A DNA stretch of 64,000 nt. It comes from Shigella phage vB_SdyM_006. The stretch lies in the sequence record MK295204. One strand, written 5' to 3'. Positions 3,939 through 49,028 of the stretch are shown one piece after another (position 1 is the stretch's first letter; the number at the start of each line of letters is the position of its first letter). The position numbers and the translations under genes were made by a program. Below the pieces are notes generated by a model. The model saw only the letters and a program-made list of their open reading frames with translations, was not told the origin of the DNA and did not search any database.

Positions 3939-4361
3939 ATGATTATTGTAGAAGATGATTTCGACATCACATTAGAAAACATAGAATCTTTTTCTGAAGA
4001 AGCAAGTAAACAATTCGACCTTATAAAAGCGTTAGAAAAAACCGATATAAATAGAATTATAGAGAACATTGCTTCTAGTGGTGATTTTGGTACTGCGATT
4101 TGTATGGGCTCATTAAACGAAAATATGCCTTTAAACGAGTATATTGTTAAACATGTTTCTTCACGCGGTGAAGTTACAAGAACTAAAGATAGAAAAACTC
4201 GTGAACGAAATGCGTTTAAAACAACTGGTTTAAGTAAATCTAAACGTAGACAAATTGCAAGAAGAGCCGTAAAAACTAAACGCGCTAATCCTTCTATCCA
4301 AACACGTGCTCAAAGAAAACGTAAAAAAGCGATGAAGAGAAGAGAGGCCTTAGGGTTATGA
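3939..4361 (+). CDS. 68: prohead core protein
   Basis: 140 aa vs 141 aa in T4; position between gp67 and gp21; basic C-terminus. Confidence 0.6.
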
Positions 4362-4984
4362 GTGAAATACTTTTAATCGAAGACTGGGGATTACCAGGTG
4401 AAACCTTAAACGGAACACCCTTAATTGAATCTTCAGAATCAGACGGCGCTCTTTATATTGAAGGTATTTTTATGCAGGCTGAAGTCGTTAATAGAAATAA
4501 ACGACTTTATCCTAAAAAAATCCTAGAACAAGCCGTAAGTAAGTACATAAAAGAACAAGTTAATTCTAAACAGGCTTTAGGCGAATTAAACCACCCACCA
4601 AGAGCTTCAGTTGATCCGATGCAAGCAGCGATTTTAATAGAAAAATTGTGGTGGGAAGGCAATAACGTGTATGGGAGAGCTAGAGTCATTGAAGGCGATT
4701 ACGGCCCAGGCGATAAGCTTGCTGCTAATATACGAGCTGGATGGATTCCAGGTGTAAGTTCTCGTGGCCTTGGTTCTTTAAAATCTTCTGGTAAAGGATA
4801 TAACGTTGTTCAAGAAGGTTATAGATTAACAGTAGGTGTAGACGTTGTATGGGGTCCTTCAGCACCAGATGCTATGGTTACTCCAAAAAGAATTCAGGAA
4901 TCTGTAGATATTCCTAAAAATATGGAAAATAGTGCTGACAAGGCATTTTCTTTATTATCACAGCGCTTAAAACAAGCGTTATAA
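4358..4984 (+). CDS. 21: prohead core scaffold protease
   Basis: Strong similarity to T4 gp21 ([55 protein letters not shown]). Confidence 0.92.
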
Positions 4985-8807: not shown

Positions 8808-9371
8808 TTAGAAAAAATCATCTAATGTAAACTCTTTATATCCTATCATTTCTTTGAATTCGCACATCACTATTGGGTTATATAAATTATAAGTCTTTAT
8901 CCCTAAATAACGTGCTAGATAAACAGCTGTTCTTGTCCCTCCAGAAACATTCCCATATTTATCCTCAGGTGCCCAAAATATAACTGAATCAACAGGATTT
9001 TCTAAAGTAGGTGTTAATATTTGCATACAATTTCTACATTGAAGATGTTTAACAGTTTTAGAAACACTGTCTAATTTAGGATAAAATCTTCTTATAATAT
9101 TAGCGGCTTTTTCTTGGATTTCGTCATTAAAGTCTGTAAATATATGAACACCATTCCCAGAATAGTGATTATTGAACCCCTGGTGAGGAATAATAACACA
9201 TTTATTTTCAGATGAGTATTTCTTCATAAACAAATAATCACTCCCAGGCGCTCCTCCTGATGTTCCTAGCACTCCTAAATTAGAAATATATTCTCCACCA
9301 CTTATTAAAATATTAGATAAACGACTTGGTATTTTTCTTGACCCTATTAAAGCTACAGAATTTTTAACCAT
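8808..9371 (-). CDS. SLOG/DprA-like Rossmann-fold protein
   Basis: N-terminal pattern LIGSRKIPS...GTSGGAPGSD and C-terminal GGTRTAVYLARYLGIKTYNL resemble the DprA/LOG/YpsA (SLOG) glycine-rich nucleotide-binding loops; motif-level call only. Confidence 0.45.
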   Translation of the reverse strand: MVKNSVALIGSRKIPSRLSNILISGGEYISNLGVLGTSGGAPGSDYLFMKKYSSENKCVIIPHQGFNNHYSGNGVHIFTDFNDEIQEKAANIIRRFYPKLDSVSKTVKHLQCRNCMQILTPTLENPVDSVIFWAPEDKYGNVSGGTRTAVYLARYLGIKTYNLYNPIVMCEFKEMIGYKEFTLDDFF

Positions 9372-9562: not shown

Positions 9563-9808
9563 TTACCAACCTGTTATTTGTATTATATTAGAATCAAATT
9601 GGGTTCTTTTAACAGTTAACCCTTCGTTTTGTAATTTTGTAATAACTTTCTCTTGGACTCGGTATGAGATTTCACCTAGAGTCCAAGTTAAACTATCATA
9701 CCCATGTTTAGATTTAAGCATTAATCGCTTTGCAATATCATTAAACACCTGTTTAGATTCAAGCTCAACTAAGCTATCTTTAGAATCTTTTAATTTATCA
9801 ATAAACAT
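9563..9808 (-). CDS. hypothetical protein
   Basis: 81 aa ORF tightly packed downstream of rnlB. Confidence 0.4.
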   Translation of the reverse strand: MFIDKLKDSKDSLVELESKQVFNDIAKRLMLKSKHGYDSLTWTLGEISYRVQEKVITKLQNEGLTVKRTQFDSNIIQITGW

Positions 9809-20704: not shown

Positions 20705-20712
20705 TATTTATA
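20705..20712 (-). promoter_or_regulatory. late promoter TATAAATA for gene 51 (divergent, overlapping)
   Basis: Exact octamer on minus strand 17 nt upstream of ATG 20688; overlaps the plus-strand octamer by 4 bp. Confidence 0.5.
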
Positions 20713-20716
20713 AATA
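20709..20716 (+). promoter_or_regulatory. late promoter TATAAATA for gene 26
   Basis: Exact octamer 18 nt upstream of ATG 20734. Confidence 0.6.
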
Positions 20717-24467: not shown

Positions 24468-24475
24468 TATAAATA
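24468..24475 (+). promoter_or_regulatory. late promoter TATAAATA for inh-like/hoc-like genes
   Basis: Exact octamer 33 nt upstream of ATG 24509. Confidence 0.6.
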
Positions 24476-24481
24476 CATATA

Positions 24482-24489
24482 TATTTATA
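24482..24489 (-). promoter_or_regulatory. late promoter TATAAATA for uvsW
   Basis: Exact octamer on minus strand 28 nt upstream of ATG 24453. Confidence 0.6.
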
Positions 24490-26056: not shown

Positions 26057-26060
26057 ACAA

Positions 26061-26090
26061 AAAAGGGACCAATTGGTCCCTTTTTATTTT
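26061..26090. terminator. bidirectional terminator after hoc-like gene
   Basis: A-run, GGGACC-AATT-GGTCCC, T-run. Confidence 0.7.
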
Positions 26091-26359
26091 TATTTTCTAA
26101 AGATCTTACCAAATTTGCTAATCACAAAATTCTCACCAACTTTAATATCGATACGAATAGAAACATGTCCTATTGTATCAGTATTCAACATATCACTTAA
26201 AGACATTGAAGAATGTCTTTCGAAATCTTCAACAATATTAAACCCATCATTATCACAATGAGTGTCAATAAATTCTTTAAGCTTTACTGAGCTTCCTTCA
26301 GATAAAATAGGGTCATTATAGAAACGACAAGATGATTCAAATAATTTTAAAGTAACCAT
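26090..26359 (-). CDS. hypothetical protein downstream of alt
   Basis: Start set at ATG preceded by AAGGAG (MVTLKLFE...); about 89 aa. Confidence 0.4.
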   Translation of the reverse strand: MVTLKLFESSCRFYNDPILSEGSSVKLKEFIDTHCDNDGFNIVEDFERHSSMSLSDMLNTDTIGHVSIRIDIKVGENFVISKFGKIFRK

Positions 26360-26419: not shown

Positions 26420-28483
26420 TTAAATAATAAATTTTTCTGGGACAAAAGTAAGATCAACAGCTGTTGATAATAATTCTAGCCCTTTTTGACTAATTTTACC
26501 AGTATTTTCTTTTAAGAATTCTTTAAACCCAATTTTTTCGATTTTTCCTTCAGATAAAAACTTATTTCCGTCAATAAGTTCGCTTTCATCTAGTAATTCT
26601 GGATCCACTACAGATGTTTCTACTAATATTGGTCTATTAAATTCTATATCACGAGCGTTTTCATAACCGTGGATAGAATGAATCTTAAGAGCTAAACCTC
26701 TAGGTAAAATCACCTCGCATTCACTAGAGTATTTTGACATATTACCAGGAATAATAACATTGACTTTATGTGCACCTTTAATAGTTATACCCATAGAAAT
26801 GTTAATATCTGTTTTCTTAGTTGCTTTCTTACCATTAACGGCTACACCAATATTTTTTGGTGTCATAACTGTTGATATAACATCATCGAATGTTTCGGAT
26901 TCAAAAGTTACTGTAGTCGCGTTAGGTTTAATATTATCAAGAACATCATTTCGTTCCCCAAAAATAATTGGAGCTAATGAAGTCGAAATATAATTAGGAA
27001 AATATAATGTTTTATTTTTAGCAGCTTTTTCTACGTCGGCATAAGGTAATTTTTGTGCTCTATATAAAATAGTTCCTTTTTCTAACTTGGTTCCTTTTTT
27101 GAAGGCCCCATCTAAGACAGGAATTTTGTTTTCATACACAGATTTTAAACTTTTATCTTTACCAAGCAAAAAGTCGTTCATTTCTTCATATCCACGTAAA
27201 GCATAATCTGTGATAACTTTTCGCTCTTCTTCTGTTAAATCCATTTCTGTTTCGGTTCTAAATAACTCTTCTAAAGGAGTATAGAAAACATTTCTGTTTA
27301 AAGCAGAGATACAGCCTCTTAAAGCTCTAGTCTTAGCCACATTATCGTCAGGTCCATATGTTTCTAAATCTTCGGCTATTTTTTTGTAAACATCCATAGC
27401 ATTATTAGAAGTTTTGAGCGCATTGTTAATTATCAATATATACGGTTTTGCTAATTTATATTTTTCTTCACTAGATAAATGATAAAAATTTTCAACACCA
27501 TACCCAGATATGCGTTCTAAAGAATCTAATAAAAATCTAGCTTCTAGATCTGATTCTTCTTCACTCACGGCCGAATTTATTTTATCTAAAAACACAGATT
27601 TAGATTCATCAATTTTATTAAGGACATTTTTATGAACTAATGCAATTTTTGTAGAATCACTTTGGACAATAGGAGGATTATCTTGTAGTTCAATATATTT
27701 TCTTCTTCCTTCTTCAGAATAATTTTCTAAGTCTTCTGGTTTAGAAACACCATACATTGCTGATAATAATTCACGTCTAGAAACTTTAGTTTTTGAAATG
27801 ACAGATCGTTCACTTCTTGTGTTTTCTTGTGCTGCAATACTTCCTGCAATGGCTTCTAATTTAGACACTTGCTTGCCAGTTTTGTCATTGATATACACAT
27901 CACCTACTTTAGAATCGACTTTAGTATATAAGTCAGAATCAATACCAGGAATCCCAGCGATGTCTTCTAAAGGTCTGTTTTTACGATATATTAAAACATA
28001 AGCATGTTTACCTGTAAATTGATACAAATCTTCTAAGACAACAAATTTACCACCAGTACGTTGCATAGCCAGACGTTTGATTATTCTTTGTAATGTCTTT
28101 TCTTGGCCTTTCATTTTTTTAGCAGGGAATCTAAATAAAACTGCGTCCATTTTAAGTTTTTTAACTTGTTCGTATACAGTGTCAAAAATAGTATTCAATG
28201 CCCCAATAGGGTCTGAGCCTAAACCATTTCTTAATTCTGCTGCATTACCATTTTTAGACAAACTCATCAAAAACACTTGAACAAATTTATCACCTTGCTT
28301 TACTGCTTTTAATGCATCGCCTTTAGATAAATAAGACACCATTCTAACTAAAAGATTGTCATTTCCAGGAACACTGACATTCCATAATTGAGGGACCTTA
28401 GCCCTTTTATTAAGATTAATAGCTTTATATTGAGCTATTTCTGAATCAAAAACCTCATTTAAATTAATTTCATTTAATTCCAT
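26420..28483 (-). CDS. alt: Alt-like ADP-ribosyltransferase (packaged, R-S-ExE class)
   Basis: 687 aa vs 682 in T4; ART triad in order: LYRAQ (Arg), ISTSL (Ser-Thr-Ser), ECEVILPRG (Glu-x-Glu); TATAAATA late promoter upstream. Confidence 0.8.
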   Translation of the reverse strand: MELNEINLNEVFDSEIAQYKAINLNKRAKVPQLWNVSVPGNDNLLVRMVSYLSKGDALKAVKQGDKFVQVFLMSLSKNGNAAELRNGLGSDPIGALNTIFDTVYEQVKKLKMDAVLFRFPAKKMKGQEKTLQRIIKRLAMQRTGGKFVVLEDLYQFTGKHAYVLIYRKNRPLEDIAGIPGIDSDLYTKVDSKVGDVYINDKTGKQVSKLEAIAGSIAAQENTRSERSVISKTKVSRRELLSAMYGVSKPEDLENYSEEGRRKYIELQDNPPIVQSDSTKIALVHKNVLNKIDESKSVFLDKINSAVSEEESDLEARFLLDSLERISGYGVENFYHLSSEEKYKLAKPYILIINNALKTSNNAMDVYKKIAEDLETYGPDDNVAKTRALRGCISALNRNVFYTPLEELFRTETEMDLTEEERKVITDYALRGYEEMNDFLLGKDKSLKSVYENKIPVLDGAFKKGTKLEKGTILYRAQKLPYADVEKAAKNKTLYFPNYISTSLAPIIFGERNDVLDNIKPNATTVTFESETFDDVISTVMTPKNIGVAVNGKKATKKTDINISMGITIKGAHKVNVIIPGNMSKYSSECEVILPRGLALKIHSIHGYENARDIEFNRPILVETSVVDPELLDESELIDGNKFLSEGKIEKIGFKEFLKENTGKISQKGLELLSTAVDLTFVPEKFII

Positions 28484-28513
28484 TTTATCACCTTTATAAT
28501 AAGAATATATTAC

Positions 28514-28521
28514 TATTTATA
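28514..28521 (-). promoter_or_regulatory. late promoter TATAAATA for alt
   Basis: Exact octamer on minus strand 30 nt upstream of alt ATG 28483. Confidence 0.6.
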
Positions 28522-29185: not shown

Positions 29186-29387
29186 AAATAATTTTTGATA
29201 AATCATCTTGTATTGCTAAGATTTTATGAAAATCTGATTCTCTTATAGGACAAGACTTATCTAACTTAAATGATATTAAAGAATTCATAAAGATAGATTC
29301 TATTTGTTCTTCTAAATCATCTATTAAAATATTCTTCTGGTGATTGTCCAAAGATTTCATAAAAGTCATTTGCCTCTTGTTTATCAA
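29184..29387 (-). CDS. hypothetical small ORF overlapping ligase 3' end
   Basis: 67 aa ORF; overlaps the ligase gene by at least 44 nt in another frame, so doubtful. Confidence 0.2.
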   Translation of the reverse strand: MINKRQMTFMKSLDNHQKNILIDDLEEQIESIFMNSLISFKLDKSCPIRESDFHKILAIQDDLSKII

Positions 29388-30789
29388 GACGTCTCATTTT
29401 AACACGTGGTAAAAATAAACTATATGTTTCTCGTCCATCAACTTTTTGAGCTGCATTACATACACCCGAGATAATCATACCGACAAGTTTACCTTTCTTA
29501 TGAAGATCCCATAATAAACGACGGTCTAATTCATGACGTTTATCGAGTGGAATCCAGATTTTTTCTTTTGAACCTTTTACCTTTTCGTAATCTTTATCCT
29601 TAAAACCAGAACCACAGTCAACTAAAATAGTCCCATCTCTAGACCTTAAATTGACACCACCTAATTTTTCAGGGTCTTTAGAATGTGGATACGCACCAAT
29701 AATTTCTAAATCAAAATCTTTTTCTTCTTTAAATTTTACTTGGTCACAAGTACGTCCATCAGACCAAACACCAAGTTTATTTTTTAGAATAATACCTTCT
29801 AACTTCATATCAACATATTTTCTGTAAATAACTTGGGCTTCTTCTAAAGTCTTAACTTCTTCTGATGGAATTAATTCTAAACGTCCTGCTTTTTTAGTAA
29901 TTAATTCTAAATTTTTTAACCTTTCTTTGTAAGGTTTATTAATTTCTGAATTATCAGTCTGTGTACCTTGTGTAACTTCATAGTTAATTAGATCCCAGAC
30001 CTGGAATTTAACACAATCTGCTTCGGTTTTTGAAATGGTTCCTTGGATTGATTTATTTGCAATACCGTTACCTTCTTCTCTAGAAGCAACAATATTTTCT
30101 TCTTCGTCTTCATCAAAGAATAAATCTAGACCTTGTTTTGTTGATTTAGGAAAATAAACTAGTTCACCATCAAGAACAACGTTTCCTAATCCTTCAGTGA
30201 TAGATACAATTTCTTCTTTTAGCAAATCTAGACCAAGATATTCGCTACCAGAACGAGAATATAAATTAACTTCCCCGTCTACAACTTCGGCAAAACATCT
30301 AGCACCATCTGCTTTAAGCTGAGCTAATGCTGGGAATTTAATTTTAGATACATTAGCTTTACTAAAAGGCGCTGCTAAAAACTGCGGCTGCTTTGGTAAT
30401 AAATTTTCCCATACTTTGTTTGGAATACTTCTTCCTACACCACATTCCAAGTCACGTTTGACAATGCGTTTAATTAATGCTGCATCTTTAGGGCATAAAC
30501 TTTCTAATACATCTTTTAAAGCAGCAATTGCAGCATGTCCTGTTAAAACCCGTTCACCTAAAACATTTTCTAAAAAATCTAAAGCGTCACGAAGTGTTTT
30601 AGATTCGGTTTTAGGTTCATATTCTGGAATCTTTTTAATATGGAATTTGACTCTTTGAGAATATGTTAATCTAAACACATCTTTTACTAATAAATTGTTT
30701 TTATATTTTAAAAGAATATTTTCTTTTTCTTTTAATGAATCCGTAGAAGCTAGTTCTACAATAATATCGTATACCATACCTTTTTCCAT
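29317..30789 (-). CDS. 30: ATP-dependent DNA ligase
   Basis: 490 aa vs 487 in T4; adenylation motif FPALAQLKADGARCFAEV, plus RDLECG and GLEGIILKN blocks. Confidence 0.93.
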   Translation of the reverse strand: MEKGMVYDIIVELASTDSLKEKENILLKYKNNLLVKDVFRLTYSQRVKFHIKKIPEYEPKTESKTLRDALDFLENVLGERVLTGHAAIAALKDVLESLCPKDAALIKRIVKRDLECGVGRSIPNKVWENLLPKQPQFLAAPFSKANVSKIKFPALAQLKADGARCFAEVVDGEVNLYSRSGSEYLGLDLLKEEIVSITEGLGNVVLDGELVYFPKSTKQGLDLFFDEDEEENIVASREEGNGIANKSIQGTISKTEADCVKFQVWDLINYEVTQGTQTDNSEINKPYKERLKNLELITKKAGRLELIPSEEVKTLEEAQVIYRKYVDMKLEGIILKNKLGVWSDGRTCDQVKFKEEKDFDLEIIGAYPHSKDPEKLGGVNLRSRDGTILVDCGSGFKDKDYEKVKGSKEKIWIPLDKRHELDRRLLWDLHKKGKLVGMIISGVCNAAQKVDGRETYSLFLPRVKMRRLDKQEANDFYEIFGQSPEEYFNR

Positions 30790-30798
30790 TTATAGTCC

Positions 30799-31434
30799 TT
30801 ATTTTATACTATTTAATGATTCTTCTAAGTCTGGTAAAATGGATTCAAAATCATACCAGTCTTTAACATTGATAATAGGACAATCTGGCAAATCACGTTG
30901 TCCACGTGGCATATGAATCAAAGGTAGTCTCGAAATAACTTTATGACAATCTTCAAGATTATGAGCCAAATCATCAACAAAACATAAAAGATTTTTAGTG
31001 TGTTTAACTTTAACATCTAAATAATGAGGAGTTTTAGATTCACCATAATTCACAAGTAAAATATCACTAAATGCATTAGGAAATAAAGAATTCAAATTAT
31101 ATAACCGATTAAACAATGCCTGGTTAGTAGTTCCTAAAGCTGTGATAGCAACAAATTCATACTTATGTTTAAGCCTATTAATGACTTCAATGGCATCAGT
31201 ATATCCAGTTAGATACTTAATATATTTTGAGTTATTGTATTCCGTCATTAATTTTAAGCCAAGTTCTTCATTACAACGGAACATTTCGCCTGGCGACATA
31301 AAAACATTTTCTGTGATAACTCTTAAAATATTTGATGTATCAATACCATAATCTTGTGCAAAATAAGGAAGTCCAGATGCCCACTGGACTAAAATGCCAT
31401 CAACGTCAGTTAAAATAACAGGTTTTACTTGCAT
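30799..31434 (-). CDS. HAD-superfamily phosphatase, nucleotidase-like
   Basis: N-terminal HAD motif I VILTDVDGILV; 211 aa. Confidence 0.55.
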   Translation of the reverse strand: MQVKPVILTDVDGILVQWASGLPYFAQDYGIDTSNILRVITENVFMSPGEMFRCNEELGLKLMTEYNNSKYIKYLTGYTDAIEVINRLKHKYEFVAITALGTTNQALFNRLYNLNSLFPNAFSDILLVNYGESKTPHYLDVKVKHTKNLLCFVDDLAHNLEDCHKVISRLPLIHMPRGQRDLPDCPIINVKDWYDFESILPDLEESLNSIK

Positions 31435-31877
31435 TATGCATCCTCATATTTAATTGCCATAAGAGCCTTTTTAGTGAATTCGTAGATGTCAATATTTTTA
31501 ACACCTTGGCTTAAAATAGATTCCACTGTTTTATCAAGAACTGGCTTAATAAAAGGTCCTTGAAGATTCATTGTTCCAGTTCTATCTTTAAATGCGATAA
31601 CGAATTTACGATCGACCCAATTATTTTTGGGTTCAAGATTTTCTATTTTTTCAAAATAACCATGTTCATCAACGTCAATAATAAACGCTACTGTAAAATC
31701 GTCTTCGGTTAAAGTTTCGTCACCACATTTAAGTTTTTTGACATGTCCACTTTCGTCAAGTTCAATAACTTTAAATGGGCTATTTGAGATAGCATTAGCA
31801 ATACGTTCATTAGAATAATTTTCATCAACAAATCCGTCAATGTCAATTAATTTATACCAACCATTTAATTCAAACAT
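31434..31877 (-). CDS. hypothetical protein (paralogue of next gene)
   Basis: 147 aa; shares Y-x-LI, YS-x-E-I and NPFKV-x-L motifs with 31885..32337. Confidence 0.45.
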   Translation of the reverse strand: MFELNGWYKLIDIDGFVDENYSNERIANAISNSPFKVIELDESGHVKKLKCGDETLTEDDFTVAFIIDVDEHGYFEKIENLEPKNNWVDRKFVIAFKDRTGTMNLQGPFIKPVLDKTVESILSQGVKNIDIYEFTKKALMAIKYEDA

Positions 31878-31884
31878 AGTATTC

Positions 31885-32337
31885 TCACTTAAAAGTAATA
31901 GATTGGGTGATTTCAGCAGTTTTATCTAAAGTATACATTTCAACTTTACCAGTAGGATTTTTTGTTAAAAATGCTTCGATACTTTTATGTGCTGATTCTT
32001 CATCTAGAGGAACTGAAGAAGTTTCTACACCGTTTAAAATTTGGACTAAAACTACACGGGCTGACGGGACTACAACTTCATTAAAATACTCCACTTCATA
32101 TTTAGAAATCACCACTGTTAATTGAGAGTCAAAATCAGAAGGTGTGTATTCTTTTCCGTTAATTGAAATTAAAACAACATCACGATTGCCAGGCCCAAGA
32201 GCTAAAACTTTAAAAGGATTTTTCCCAATAAGGTTATAAATTTTTTCATTATATGCCGAGTACTCTTTAAACTCGTGTTCATTGATAAGTTGATAAGATT
32301 TACCGATTTCAAATTCAAAAGCTGTTTTAGTTTTCAT
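31885..32337 (-). CDS. hypothetical protein (paralogue of previous gene)
   Basis: 150 aa; paralogue of 31434..31877. Confidence 0.45.
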   Translation of the reverse strand: MKTKTAFEFEIGKSYQLINEHEFKEYSAYNEKIYNLIGKNPFKVLALGPGNRDVVLISINGKEYTPSDFDSQLTVVISKYEVEYFNEVVVPSARVVLVQILNGVETSSVPLDEESAHKSIEAFLTKNPTGKVEMYTLDKTAEITQSITFK

Positions 32338-32338
32338 A

Positions 32339-32659
32339 TTAGGACCTTATTTTTAAGATTGTTTTCATTGCAGCAACTAATGGTTTTTTATCCTCAACCC
32401 AGTCATCACAACATAAATTTTCATTATCGAAATTATTGTATCTAGAACCTAGACAATGTAAACCGATAAATGTATCATTTGATGTTTTTGTTACACTGAT
32501 ATCATGGTCTAACATTAAGACCCAAGCTTGATTAATATTATTACATGGATCAAATTTTAAGCCATTAATATAAACAAATAACTTAAACCCTTGGTTTTCT
32601 ACTGTGTATTCATACCCAAGACTTTTAGCTAGTTCAATATTAATATCAAGTTCAGTCAT
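32339..32659 (-). CDS. hypothetical protein
   Basis: 106 aa ORF with FDPCNN motif; 4-nt overlap with upstream NADAR-like gene. Confidence 0.45.
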   Translation of the reverse strand: MTELDINIELAKSLGYEYTVENQGFKLFVYINGLKFDPCNNINQAWVLMLDHDISVTKTSNDTFIGLHCLGSRYNNFDNENLCCDDWVEDKKPLVAAMKTILKIRS

Positions 32660-33093
32660 AACCGTCTCCTTAAAGATGTCAATATACCACAGAATTCTTG
32701 GTTTGTTAATATAGTTTCGAACTTATTTTCGCATCCTATAGTATGAACTAATGTTTTATCGCCTGTTGCTCTCAGAGCATCTCTGAATGATTTATTCTGA
32801 TTAAACATATGAATATATGCTCTGACTAGTAAACGTTTGTAGGCTTCACTGTGACGATTAATAGGGCATCCATTATACCACATAGTGTCATTTTTCATTT
32901 TAGGACCAGCTAATTTGGCCTTTAATCCATGCAGTTTAAACACTTCAGATTGTTCTTTAGGGTCTTTAATTTTTAATCCTTGTAAAAATCCTTCTATACT
33001 GCCAAAGAGCTGATTGTCCATTTTAAAAGGATGCTCAGCAAAATTACTTAAAGCACATGAAGGCCAAGGGCCTCTAGAATGAATATCAATCAT
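32656..33093 (-). CDS. NADAR-like (YbiA-type) putative ADP-ribose glycohydrolase
   Basis: 145 aa; LSNFAEHPFKMDNQLFGSIEGFLQGLKI aligns with the YbiA core FSNFA-x-PI-x-DG-x3-TSEHYFQAQKF. Confidence 0.55.
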   Translation of the reverse strand: MIDIHSRGPWPSCALSNFAEHPFKMDNQLFGSIEGFLQGLKIKDPKEQSEVFKLHGLKAKLAGPKMKNDTMWYNGCPINRHSEAYKRLLVRAYIHMFNQNKSFRDALRATGDKTLVHTIGCENKFETILTNQEFCGILTSLRRRL

Positions 33094-47995: not shown

Positions 47996-48285
47996 TTATT
48001 ATCACTCACGTACACCAATTGTTTAAAAGATAGTTTAAGCTGTTCTATAGATACTTTAGAATCCGCTGTAACGAATTCTAATTCACCCATTCCTAGCATT
48101 TTACCATCAACCCAAAGTTCAATACATGTCATGTCCCACCAATTTTTTCTAGAATTCAAGAAATCTCTAACTTGTTCTAAGTTAGAGAAAACTCCTGCGT
48201 TTCTAGAGGATTCACACATATTATGGTCAACAACAATAAGTATCTTCGACATTTTTATCCACCAAAACAAAATAAATTTGCTCAC
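47980..48285 (-). CDS. hypothetical protein
   Basis: 101 aa ORF overlapping td start by 16 nt. Confidence 0.4.
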
Positions 48286-48634
48286 CTTGTTTAATAAAAT
48301 ATCCGTAGATTTTTACTTCAGTATCTTTAACTTTAACATACCCTTCAGAAACGGCTTTTGTTATGTCAAATAGTGTAGTACGAATATAAACCAAGCCATC
48401 TTTAGTTCTAATAGATGTACATGATGAATTTATATTTGAGCCAAGTTCTTTTATATCACAAGAAATCTCATAAATACCATGGTGTAATTCTCGTTCTTGA
48501 CAATTTCTATAATTAGATTTAAAAGTTTTTAAAGAAATAGAATCTAAAAAGAATGTTCTTGAAGGAGGCGCTTTAACTAATTTCCATGAGCACATTGGTT
48601 GTACAAACTTTTTATACAATTTAATTTCAGCCAT
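48227..48634 (-). CDS. hypothetical protein, tandem paralogue A
   Basis: 135 aa; shares W-x-LV-x-AP, FF-x-D, HG(I/V)YE and SEG motifs with 48627..49028. Confidence 0.45.
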   Translation of the reverse strand: MAEIKLYKKFVQPMCSWKLVKAPPSRTFFLDSISLKTFKSNYRNCQERELHHGIYEISCDIKELGSNINSSCTSIRTKDGLVYIRTTLFDITKAVSEGYVKVKDTEVKIYGYFIKQGEQIYFVLVDKNVEDTYCC

Positions 48635-49028
48635 TATTCAAGTCCTCATTTATTAAAGGATAAAGACAAATAATACGGCCATTTTTTCTAAAGATACCTT
48701 TAACTGTAATTAAGTTATTTTCAATTTTAGTATGTCCTTCAGAAATAGATTTAAAAAGACGACATAAACATGTGTCCATTTTAACAGCTCGTTTATCTGT
48801 GATATCTGAATTTGTCAAATATAAATCGTGTCCATTACCGCCATATTCTCTATCAATTTTATAATTTTTTAATTCGTAGACACCATGCGGCATAACATCA
48901 ACATGTTCTTTTCGTATTAAAGATTTATACCCATCGATAGTAAGGTCTTTAAAGAATAAGAAATGTTCTTTAGGTGCTTCTACAAGAACCCAATTATTTT
49001 GTTCTTCAAATCTGTGAATTAGTTGCAT
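48627..49028 (-). CDS. hypothetical protein, tandem paralogue B
   Basis: 133 aa; paralogue of 48227..48634. Confidence 0.45.
   Translation of the reverse strand: MQLIHRFEEQNNWVLVEAPKEHFLFFKDLTIDGYKSLIRKEHVDVMPHGVYELKNYKIDREYGGNGHDLYLTNSDITDKRAVKMDTCLCRLFKSISEGHTKIENNLITVKGIFRKNGRIICLYPLINEDLNNG

Follow-up and report, generated by a model that had tools for sequence, protein, structure and literature searches.

Does Shigella phage vB_SdyM_006 encode an Alt protein comparable to that of phage T4, and does it also control the removal of the modification that Alt would install? This question is raised by a 64,000-nucleotide stretch of the phage's sequence record (MK295204), referred to here as the window, in which an open reading frame (ORF) of 687 codons had been interpreted from its letters alone as an Alt-type ADP-ribosyltransferase (ART) that retains its R-S-ExE triad and is preceded by a late promoter. 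Macro and NADAR candidates were noted in the same genome, and this original prediction suggested that both writing and erasing of ADP-ribose may be phage-controlled. Our sequence comparisons identify the gene, with high confidence, as an ortholog of T4 alt. It is a strain-level variant of a gene already annotated in Proteus and Providencia phages, and the proposed writing and erasing system did not hold up.

The ORF was found on the minus strand at 26420..28483 and specifies a 687-residue product (precursor mass 77.2 kDa) in which the three ART elements LYRAQ, ISTSL and ECEVILPRG occur in the predicted order. A PHROG search aligned residues 5-686 with positions 2-673 of the 674-position profile phrog_802 (Alt-like RNA polymerase ADP-ribosyltransferase; E = 1.2e-217), and the proposed match to T4 Alt (NP_049811) was borne out by BLASTP, which returned an alignment that is collinear from end to end (residues 1-686, 30% identity, E = 2e-90). 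In this alignment, LYRSQ, VSTSL and EMEVILPRG of the 682-residue T4 protein fall on the three elements of the phage protein, and the R-S-ExE motifs are common to both. Full-length collinear homology that includes the Alt-specific N-terminal domain places the protein among the T4 Alt orthologs (PHROG 802), as does the position of its gene beside the ligase gene and the 30.x cluster, and no evidence contradicts the Alt assignment.

Relatives of this Alt were detected by tblastn in 1,223 phage records, and in 1,142 of these, nearly all of them T4-like phages of enterobacteria, Acinetobacter and Aeromonas, the match spans at least 80% of the protein. Two Proteus phages (Straboviridae, Bragavirus), SJ_PmiM and phiP4-3, have DNA identities of 99.6% and 98.9%, respectively, over the 7 kb around alt, and the phiP4-3 Alt (YP_010093607) is 99.4% identical at the protein level. 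The Alt proteins of PM2, Pm5461 and PSTCR6, which are T4-like phages of Proteus or Providencia, are 54-59% identical. In the records of all five, the gene is labelled RNA polymerase ADP-ribosylase or Alt-like; the wording used for SJ_PmiM and phiP4-3 is 'RNA polymerase ADP-ribosylase' or 'Alt-like RNA polymerase ADP-ribosyltransferase'. The gene carries little weight as a discovery: T4 Alt is a textbook protein, and near-identical GenBank records already contain this copy with its annotation.

Pfam analysis matched residues 414-608 to PF03496 (ADPrib_exo_Tox) with a score of 54 bits (E = 1.7e-14), well above the gathering cut-off of 23.4. When 34 diverse Alt proteins were aligned, all of them had S500, E588 and E590, and R475 is kept in all but one (33/34), an RB69 entry that is garbled over that segment, while the flanking motifs Y-F-x-N-[YF]-[IV]-S-T-S and E-x-E-V-I-L-P-R-G are also conserved. 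Searching solved structures with the single sequence gave only marginal matches (a bromodomain at E = 0.06 and Vis at E = 0.2, the latter with STS aligned on STS), so a family profile was needed. This profile matched Certhrax, a Listeria ART effector, C3-like enzymes, BECa, CDTa, VIP2, Iota Ia, Vis, ExoS/T and SpvB, and it placed Y-R on the catalytic arginine of the toxins and ExE on the QxE/ExE of Certhrax, C3-like enzymes and BECa. A profile score above threshold, combined with ordered motifs at the catalytic positions of characterised members, assigns the domain to the R-S-E clade (PF03496; Alt/VIP2 family). The triad is intact, as had been proposed, and consists of R475, S500-T-S502 and E588-x-E590, all aligned to the catalytic motifs of characterised enzymes.

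The AlphaFold model of the protein has a mean predicted local distance difference test score (pLDDT) of 75, with values of 80-93 for the strands of the ART core. R475, the STS motif (strand 499-502) and E590 are placed on beta-strands, and E588 directly precedes the E590 strand; the strands that carry the triad are those expected for it. A Foldseek search with this model retrieved Vis, CDTa, Plx2A, Certhrax, C3bot and VIP2 (E = 4e-7 to 1e-5, template modelling (TM) scores of 0.53-0.64 relative to the target), and the C-terminal domain is clearly predicted to have an ART fold, with the match being at the level of the fold. Taken as a whole, the sequence-profile and fold evidence speaks against a displaced triad. 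The R-S-E toxins (Vis, C3 exoenzymes, Certhrax, VIP2, Iota Ia and CDTa) have the catalytic fold and the R, STS and (Q/E)xE motifs in common with Alt, but identity is 14-20% and Alt features a variable insert of ~50 residues between STS and ExE. In place of the delivery domains of the toxins, Alt carries an N-terminal domain, a linker and propeptides that are phage-specific.

On the minus strand, alt is preceded by a hairpin, TTTGG, TATAAATA, AAGGTGA and the ATG, in that order. The late promoter of the original prediction is therefore present as a motif, an exact TATAAATA 30 nt from the ATG, and the layout is equivalent to that of T4, where a hairpin and then TATAAATA also precede alt. The abundance of this motif is not significant in the AT-rich window (15 copies versus 16.9 expected from shuffles), so its occurrence alone proves nothing and the information lies solely in its placement: six of the 15 copies are 9-45 nt 5' of a start codon on the same strand. 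This count is the highest of the 56 8-mers with this base composition (mean 1.3), and these copies precede genes for the scaffold protein and baseplate hub, inh, uvsW and alt. At motif level, this points to late expression from a gp55-type promoter. The hairpin upstream of the promoter is terminator-like and would close the preceding early-gene unit. At its other end, the alt unit is closed by the hairpin at 26060..26085 after one small ORF that has no recognisable family and is probably co-transcribed with alt. Divergent, back-to-back TATAAATA motifs were also observed at 20705..20716 and 24468..24489, in short gaps between divergent late genes, where they adjoin baseplate hub genes and uvsW/inh.

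T4 Alt is packaged in the capsid at ~40 copies and is injected with the DNA. Mass spectrometry of T4 heads has shown that the gp21 protease cuts Alt after ITE-6 and LTE-619, which removes 63 C-terminal residues (PMC5694885). Both sites have predicted counterparts here, as (L/I)xE motifs occur at both ends of the protein (LNE-10 and LDE-633) and point, at motif level, to gp21 processing into a mature Alt of residues 11-633 (~70 kDa). Across the 34 homologs, the two cleavage motifs have Leu or Ile at the first position in 31 and Glu at the third position in 33, which indicates that the family as a whole shares the two gp21 sites that were recently mapped in T4 Alt. In addition, both termini are predicted to be disordered in the AlphaFold model. 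The conserved motifs, the disordered termini and the presence of a gp21 gene support T4-like packaging and processing without proving it, and Alt is presumably packaged and processed as in T4. The T4 propeptide has 6 residues, whereas the one predicted here has 10 and contains two tandem LNE motifs (MELNE-INLNE). This tandem arrangement is also found in Proteus phage PM2 and one metagenomic relative, while most Alt proteins have a single LNE.

Collectively, these data make it very probable that the gene is an alt ortholog whose product follows the whole T4 pathway of late transcription, packaging, gp21 trimming, injection and arginine mono-ADP-ribosylation of host proteins. In this pathway, alt would be transcribed late from its TATAAATA promoter and the 77-kDa precursor would become part of the prohead core. 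Trimming by the prohead protease after LNE-10 and LDE-633 would then yield a ~70-kDa enzyme that is kept inside the filled head. Mature Alt would be ejected with the DNA at the next infection, when its C-terminal R-S-E domain would use host nicotinamide adenine dinucleotide (NAD+) to mono-ADP-ribosylate arginines of host proteins. By analogy to T4, the main target would be Arg265 of the RNA polymerase alpha subunit, which would bias transcription to phage early promoters, and a wider set of secondary targets may be modified. Packaging, injection, enzymatic activity, arginine specificity and targets are thus all inferred from T4. Only slight RNAylation by T4 Alt has been observed in vitro (PMC10468400), so plain ADP-ribosylation is the expected chemistry. 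The parallel with T4 has its limits. Identity to T4 Alt is only 30%, and hoc, inh and uvsW occupy the distal side here, where T4 has gene 54 and alt.-1 to alt.-3. The promoter, the cleavage and the packaging are inferred from motifs only, and the hypervariability of the linker and of the 511-560 insert means that the target range may differ from that of T4.

An alternative that we consider possible, if somewhat unlikely, is that Alt is an active, packaged ART whose main targets in Proteus are not the RNA polymerase alpha subunit; toxin-antitoxin components, translation factors or defence proteins are candidates. Its specificity would then differ from that of T4 Alt, and its chief role would be that of a takeover or anti-defence effector. 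T4 Alt is itself known to act on many proteins (PMC10468400; PMC5512222). The low identity to T4 Alt also favours different targets, as does a catalytic core that stays fixed while the linker and insert fall to 13% and 6% identity (regional values are mean identities to this Alt in the 34-homolog alignment), a pattern typical of changing substrate recognition. On the other hand, the C-terminal domain of the RNA polymerase alpha subunit is highly conserved among Enterobacterales, and the retention of Alt in more than 1,100 T4-like genomes with many hosts fits a conserved target. It is highly improbable that the protein is a catalytically dead internal head protein with only a structural or packaging role. 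Conservation of the non-catalytic N-terminal domain exceeds that of the ART domain and a few relatives keep the N-terminal domain without a detectable ART domain, as such a role might allow, but the arginine, the serine and both glutamates are conserved here and across the family along with the flanking ART motifs, and an ART fold is predicted with high pLDDT for its core strands. There is even less reason to believe that the gene encodes an early ART of the ModA/ModB type instead of a packaged Alt. T4 ModA and ModB belong to the same ART clade as Alt and have the ExE context E-x-E-[VW]-[IM]-[LI]-P-x-G in common with it, but these are early proteins of ~200 residues that are not packaged and lack the Alt N-terminal domain. 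The protein encoded here is a multi-domain protein of 687 residues with the Alt-specific N-terminal domain, linker and both propeptides, and its promoter motif is late, not early. An alignment with ModA and ModB, which the original prediction had proposed as a check, was generated using MAFFT and supported the triad only in part: the ExE block aligned (Alt ExE on EQE), while the R and S motifs of ModA/ModB were shifted by the aligner, so the alignment provides no evidence for R or S, and the forced identity was just 15-19%.

We also regard it as very improbable that Alt and a phage NADAR protein, possibly with a macro protein, constitute a reversible circuit in which the phage removes the ADP-ribose that Alt installs. 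A NADAR-family gene does lie 4.2 kb from alt in the same orientation, and the joint presence of ART, Macro and NADAR genes in myoviruses exceeds chance, according to a survey that already covered T4-like phages and Alt/VIP2 genes in T4-like contexts (PMC9503650). The product of this gene (32656..33093) matches the phage-specific Pfam family PF08010 (Table 1), whereas its score against the generic NADAR family PF08719 (26 bits, E = 1e-5) is under the cut-off of 35. It is 46% identical to T4 gp30.3 (E = 3e-42), and E34 and K41 are the counterparts of the T4 catalytic residues E36 and K43, which places it in the NADAR/AdfN family. T4 gp30.3 is AdfN, a DNA ADP-ribosylglycohydrolase that removes ADP-ribose added to phage DNA by host DarT1; this protein is both required and sufficient for overcoming DarTG1, and its catalytic residues are E36 and K43 (PMC11257639). 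As the NADAR protein is an AdfN ortholog that retains the catalytic Glu and Lys, its known role is counter-defence on DNA and not the reversal of the arginine modification by Alt. An AdfN ortholog also implies that DarT1-type defences may be present in the Proteus hosts of this lineage.

Searches for a macro domain were negative throughout the window. No macro match to Pfam was found among 30 unannotated ORFs and none to PHROGs among 10 ORFs, the combination of NAAN, GGG[VIL] and G[IVL][YF] motifs was absent from all 162 stop-to-stop frames of at least 70 residues, and a heuristic phmmer search with an approximate macro query, taken as a lead only, was likewise negative. Of the two candidates that had been expected in this genome, the NADAR protein was therefore found and the macro protein was not found in the window. 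Given that the NADAR protein belongs to an anti-DarT1 DNA-repair counter-defence and that no macro domain was found, phage-controlled writing and erasing of ADP-ribose was removed from the leads. The earlier macro candidate may derive from a 187-residue DprA/SLOG-like Rossmann protein (8808..9371, minus strand), which features GSR...GGAPGSD motifs and a weak Pfam match to DNA_processg_A. This ORF is ~440 nt from the RNA ligase 2 gene, with a small ORF (9563..9808) between them. SLOG domains feature in discussions of phage NAD/ADP-ribose networks.

In T4, Alt is accompanied by ModA and ModB. Searches with tblastn, phmmer and an ART-domain hidden Markov model (HMM), which covered the window and 97% of the genome of phiP4-3, the closest complete genome, detected neither these partners nor any second ART, and the ORFs at the srd/dda position that is syntenic with T4 likewise gave no ModA/ModB match in PHROG scans. 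ModA and ModB diverge fast, so their absence is probable, not proven, and Alt may be the sole R-S-E enzyme of this lineage. The srd/dda position in phiP4-3 is instead occupied by two paralogous phrog_11307 proteins. A hypothetical protein of phiP4-3, gp123 (L006 21750..23813), which is encoded outside the window and is flanked by the baseplate genes for gp5 and gp6, has exactly 687 residues as well, but it was rejected as Alt-like (HMM E > 0.9) and the equal length is apparently a coincidence.

The N-terminal domain is the best-conserved part of Alt (61% mean identity, compared with 39-44% for the ART core). When modelled alone, this domain is predicted to have a confident fold (pLDDT 87, predicted TM score 0.86). 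It has no match in Pfam, a profile of the domain retrieved nothing below E = 0.5 from solved structures, and no function is assigned to it in the reviews consulted. A profile search of 1.84 billion representative proteins located the domain in only 75 clusters (50% identity), almost all of which consist of proteins of 600-712 residues, i.e. complete Alt proteins. The few relatives that have the domain without a detectable ART domain are 1142 (P0148), 541, 485 and 347 residues long (the latter three among P0152, P0146 and P0151). In a few relatives, the N-terminal domain is followed by 300-900 residues in which no ART domain can be detected, and a PARP-type domain is present in one weak match. 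The conservation of the domain suggests that it could be a virion-incorporation/ejection module or a substrate-docking module. The relatives that lack an ART domain and the weak match with a PARP-type domain also led us to consider an autonomous module with a distant GNAT-like, nucleotide- or acyl-CoA-binding fold, which might supply a second activity or serve as a portable virion-delivery domain for cargo other than an R-S-E ART; we judge this reading to be unlikely. Structural matches to the domain are weak and mostly GNAT-like, and they have no sequence support; membership of the GNAT family is kept as a speculative reading only, with GNAT-like ligand binding being of low probability. The N-terminal domain is under the strongest constraint, above that of the catalytic domain, and is where new Alt biology would lie.

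Table 1. Features of the alt gene, its predicted product and neighbouring genes in the window. Residue numbers refer to the 687-residue precursor.
Feature	Coordinates	Strand	Basis or remark
alt coding sequence	26420..28483	-	ORF list; ATG start, 687 codons
R-S-E clade ART domain, residues 411-612	26648..27253	-	Pfam PF03496, family profile, Foldseek; hypervariable insert 511-560
Catalytic Arg475 (LYRAQ, from residue 473)	27059..27061	-	In 33/34 homologs; aligned to YR of toxins
S500-T501-S502 (ISTSL, from residue 499)	26978..26986	-	S500 invariant in 34 homologs; aligned to Vis STS
E588-C-E590 (ECEVILPRG, from residue 588)	26714..26722	-	Both Glu invariant; aligned to QxE/ExE of C3-like enzymes and BECa
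ART core, first part, residues 411-510			Mean identity 39%
Insert between STS and ExE, residues 511-560			Mean identity 6%
ART core, second part, residues 561-610			Mean identity 44%
N-terminal domain, residues 16-235	27779..28438	-	Mean identity 61%
Hypervariable helical linker, residues 236-410	27254..27778	-	Mean identity 13%; helices predicted
Predicted N-terminal propeptide / capsid-targeting peptide MELNEINLNE	28454..28483	-	Ends in (L/I)xE motif LNE-10; aligns with T4 ITE-6; pLDDT <50
Predicted C-terminal protease site L631-D-E633	26585..26593	-	Aligns with T4 LTE-619
Predicted C-terminal propeptide, 54 residues	26423..26584	-	Low pLDDT over 633-663
Late promoter motif TATAAATA (T4-type, exact)	28514..28521	-	Sequence; ATG 30 nt downstream
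Ribosome-binding site AAGGTGA	28488..28494	-	Sequence
Terminator-like hairpin, 8-bp GC-rich stem, UUCG loop	28527..28546	-	Terminator scan; directly 5' of late promoter
Small downstream ORF	26090..26359	-	Hypothetical in phiP4-3; no Pfam match
Bidirectional terminator hairpin	26060..26085	both	Terminator scan; ends alt unit and convergent hoc unit
DNA ligase (gene 30)	29317..30789		Synteny with T4
30.2 homolog	30799..31434		Synteny with T4
gp30.3/AdfN NADAR-family protein	32656..33093	-	PF08010 (Phage_30_3), E = 1e-42, 145 bits versus cut-off 36
Prohead protease, gp21 homolog	4358..4984	+	Labelled head maturation protease in phiP4-3

As in this phage, alt of T4 is located downstream of a 30.3-30.2-ligase block. 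In contrast, the duplicated fragments alt.-1 and alt.-2 of T4, as well as alt.1 and alt.-3, have no homologs beside the alt gene described here, where a comparison of the flanking ORFs (including 26090..26359) with T4 alt.1, alt.-1, alt.-2 and alt.-3 revealed no similarity. Two pairs of tandem paralogs with no Pfam match were also observed on the minus strand: a phrog_1928 pair (48227..48634 and 48627..49028) between frd and td, and a phrog_3710 pair (31434..31877 and 31885..32337) between the 30.2 and 30.3 homologs.

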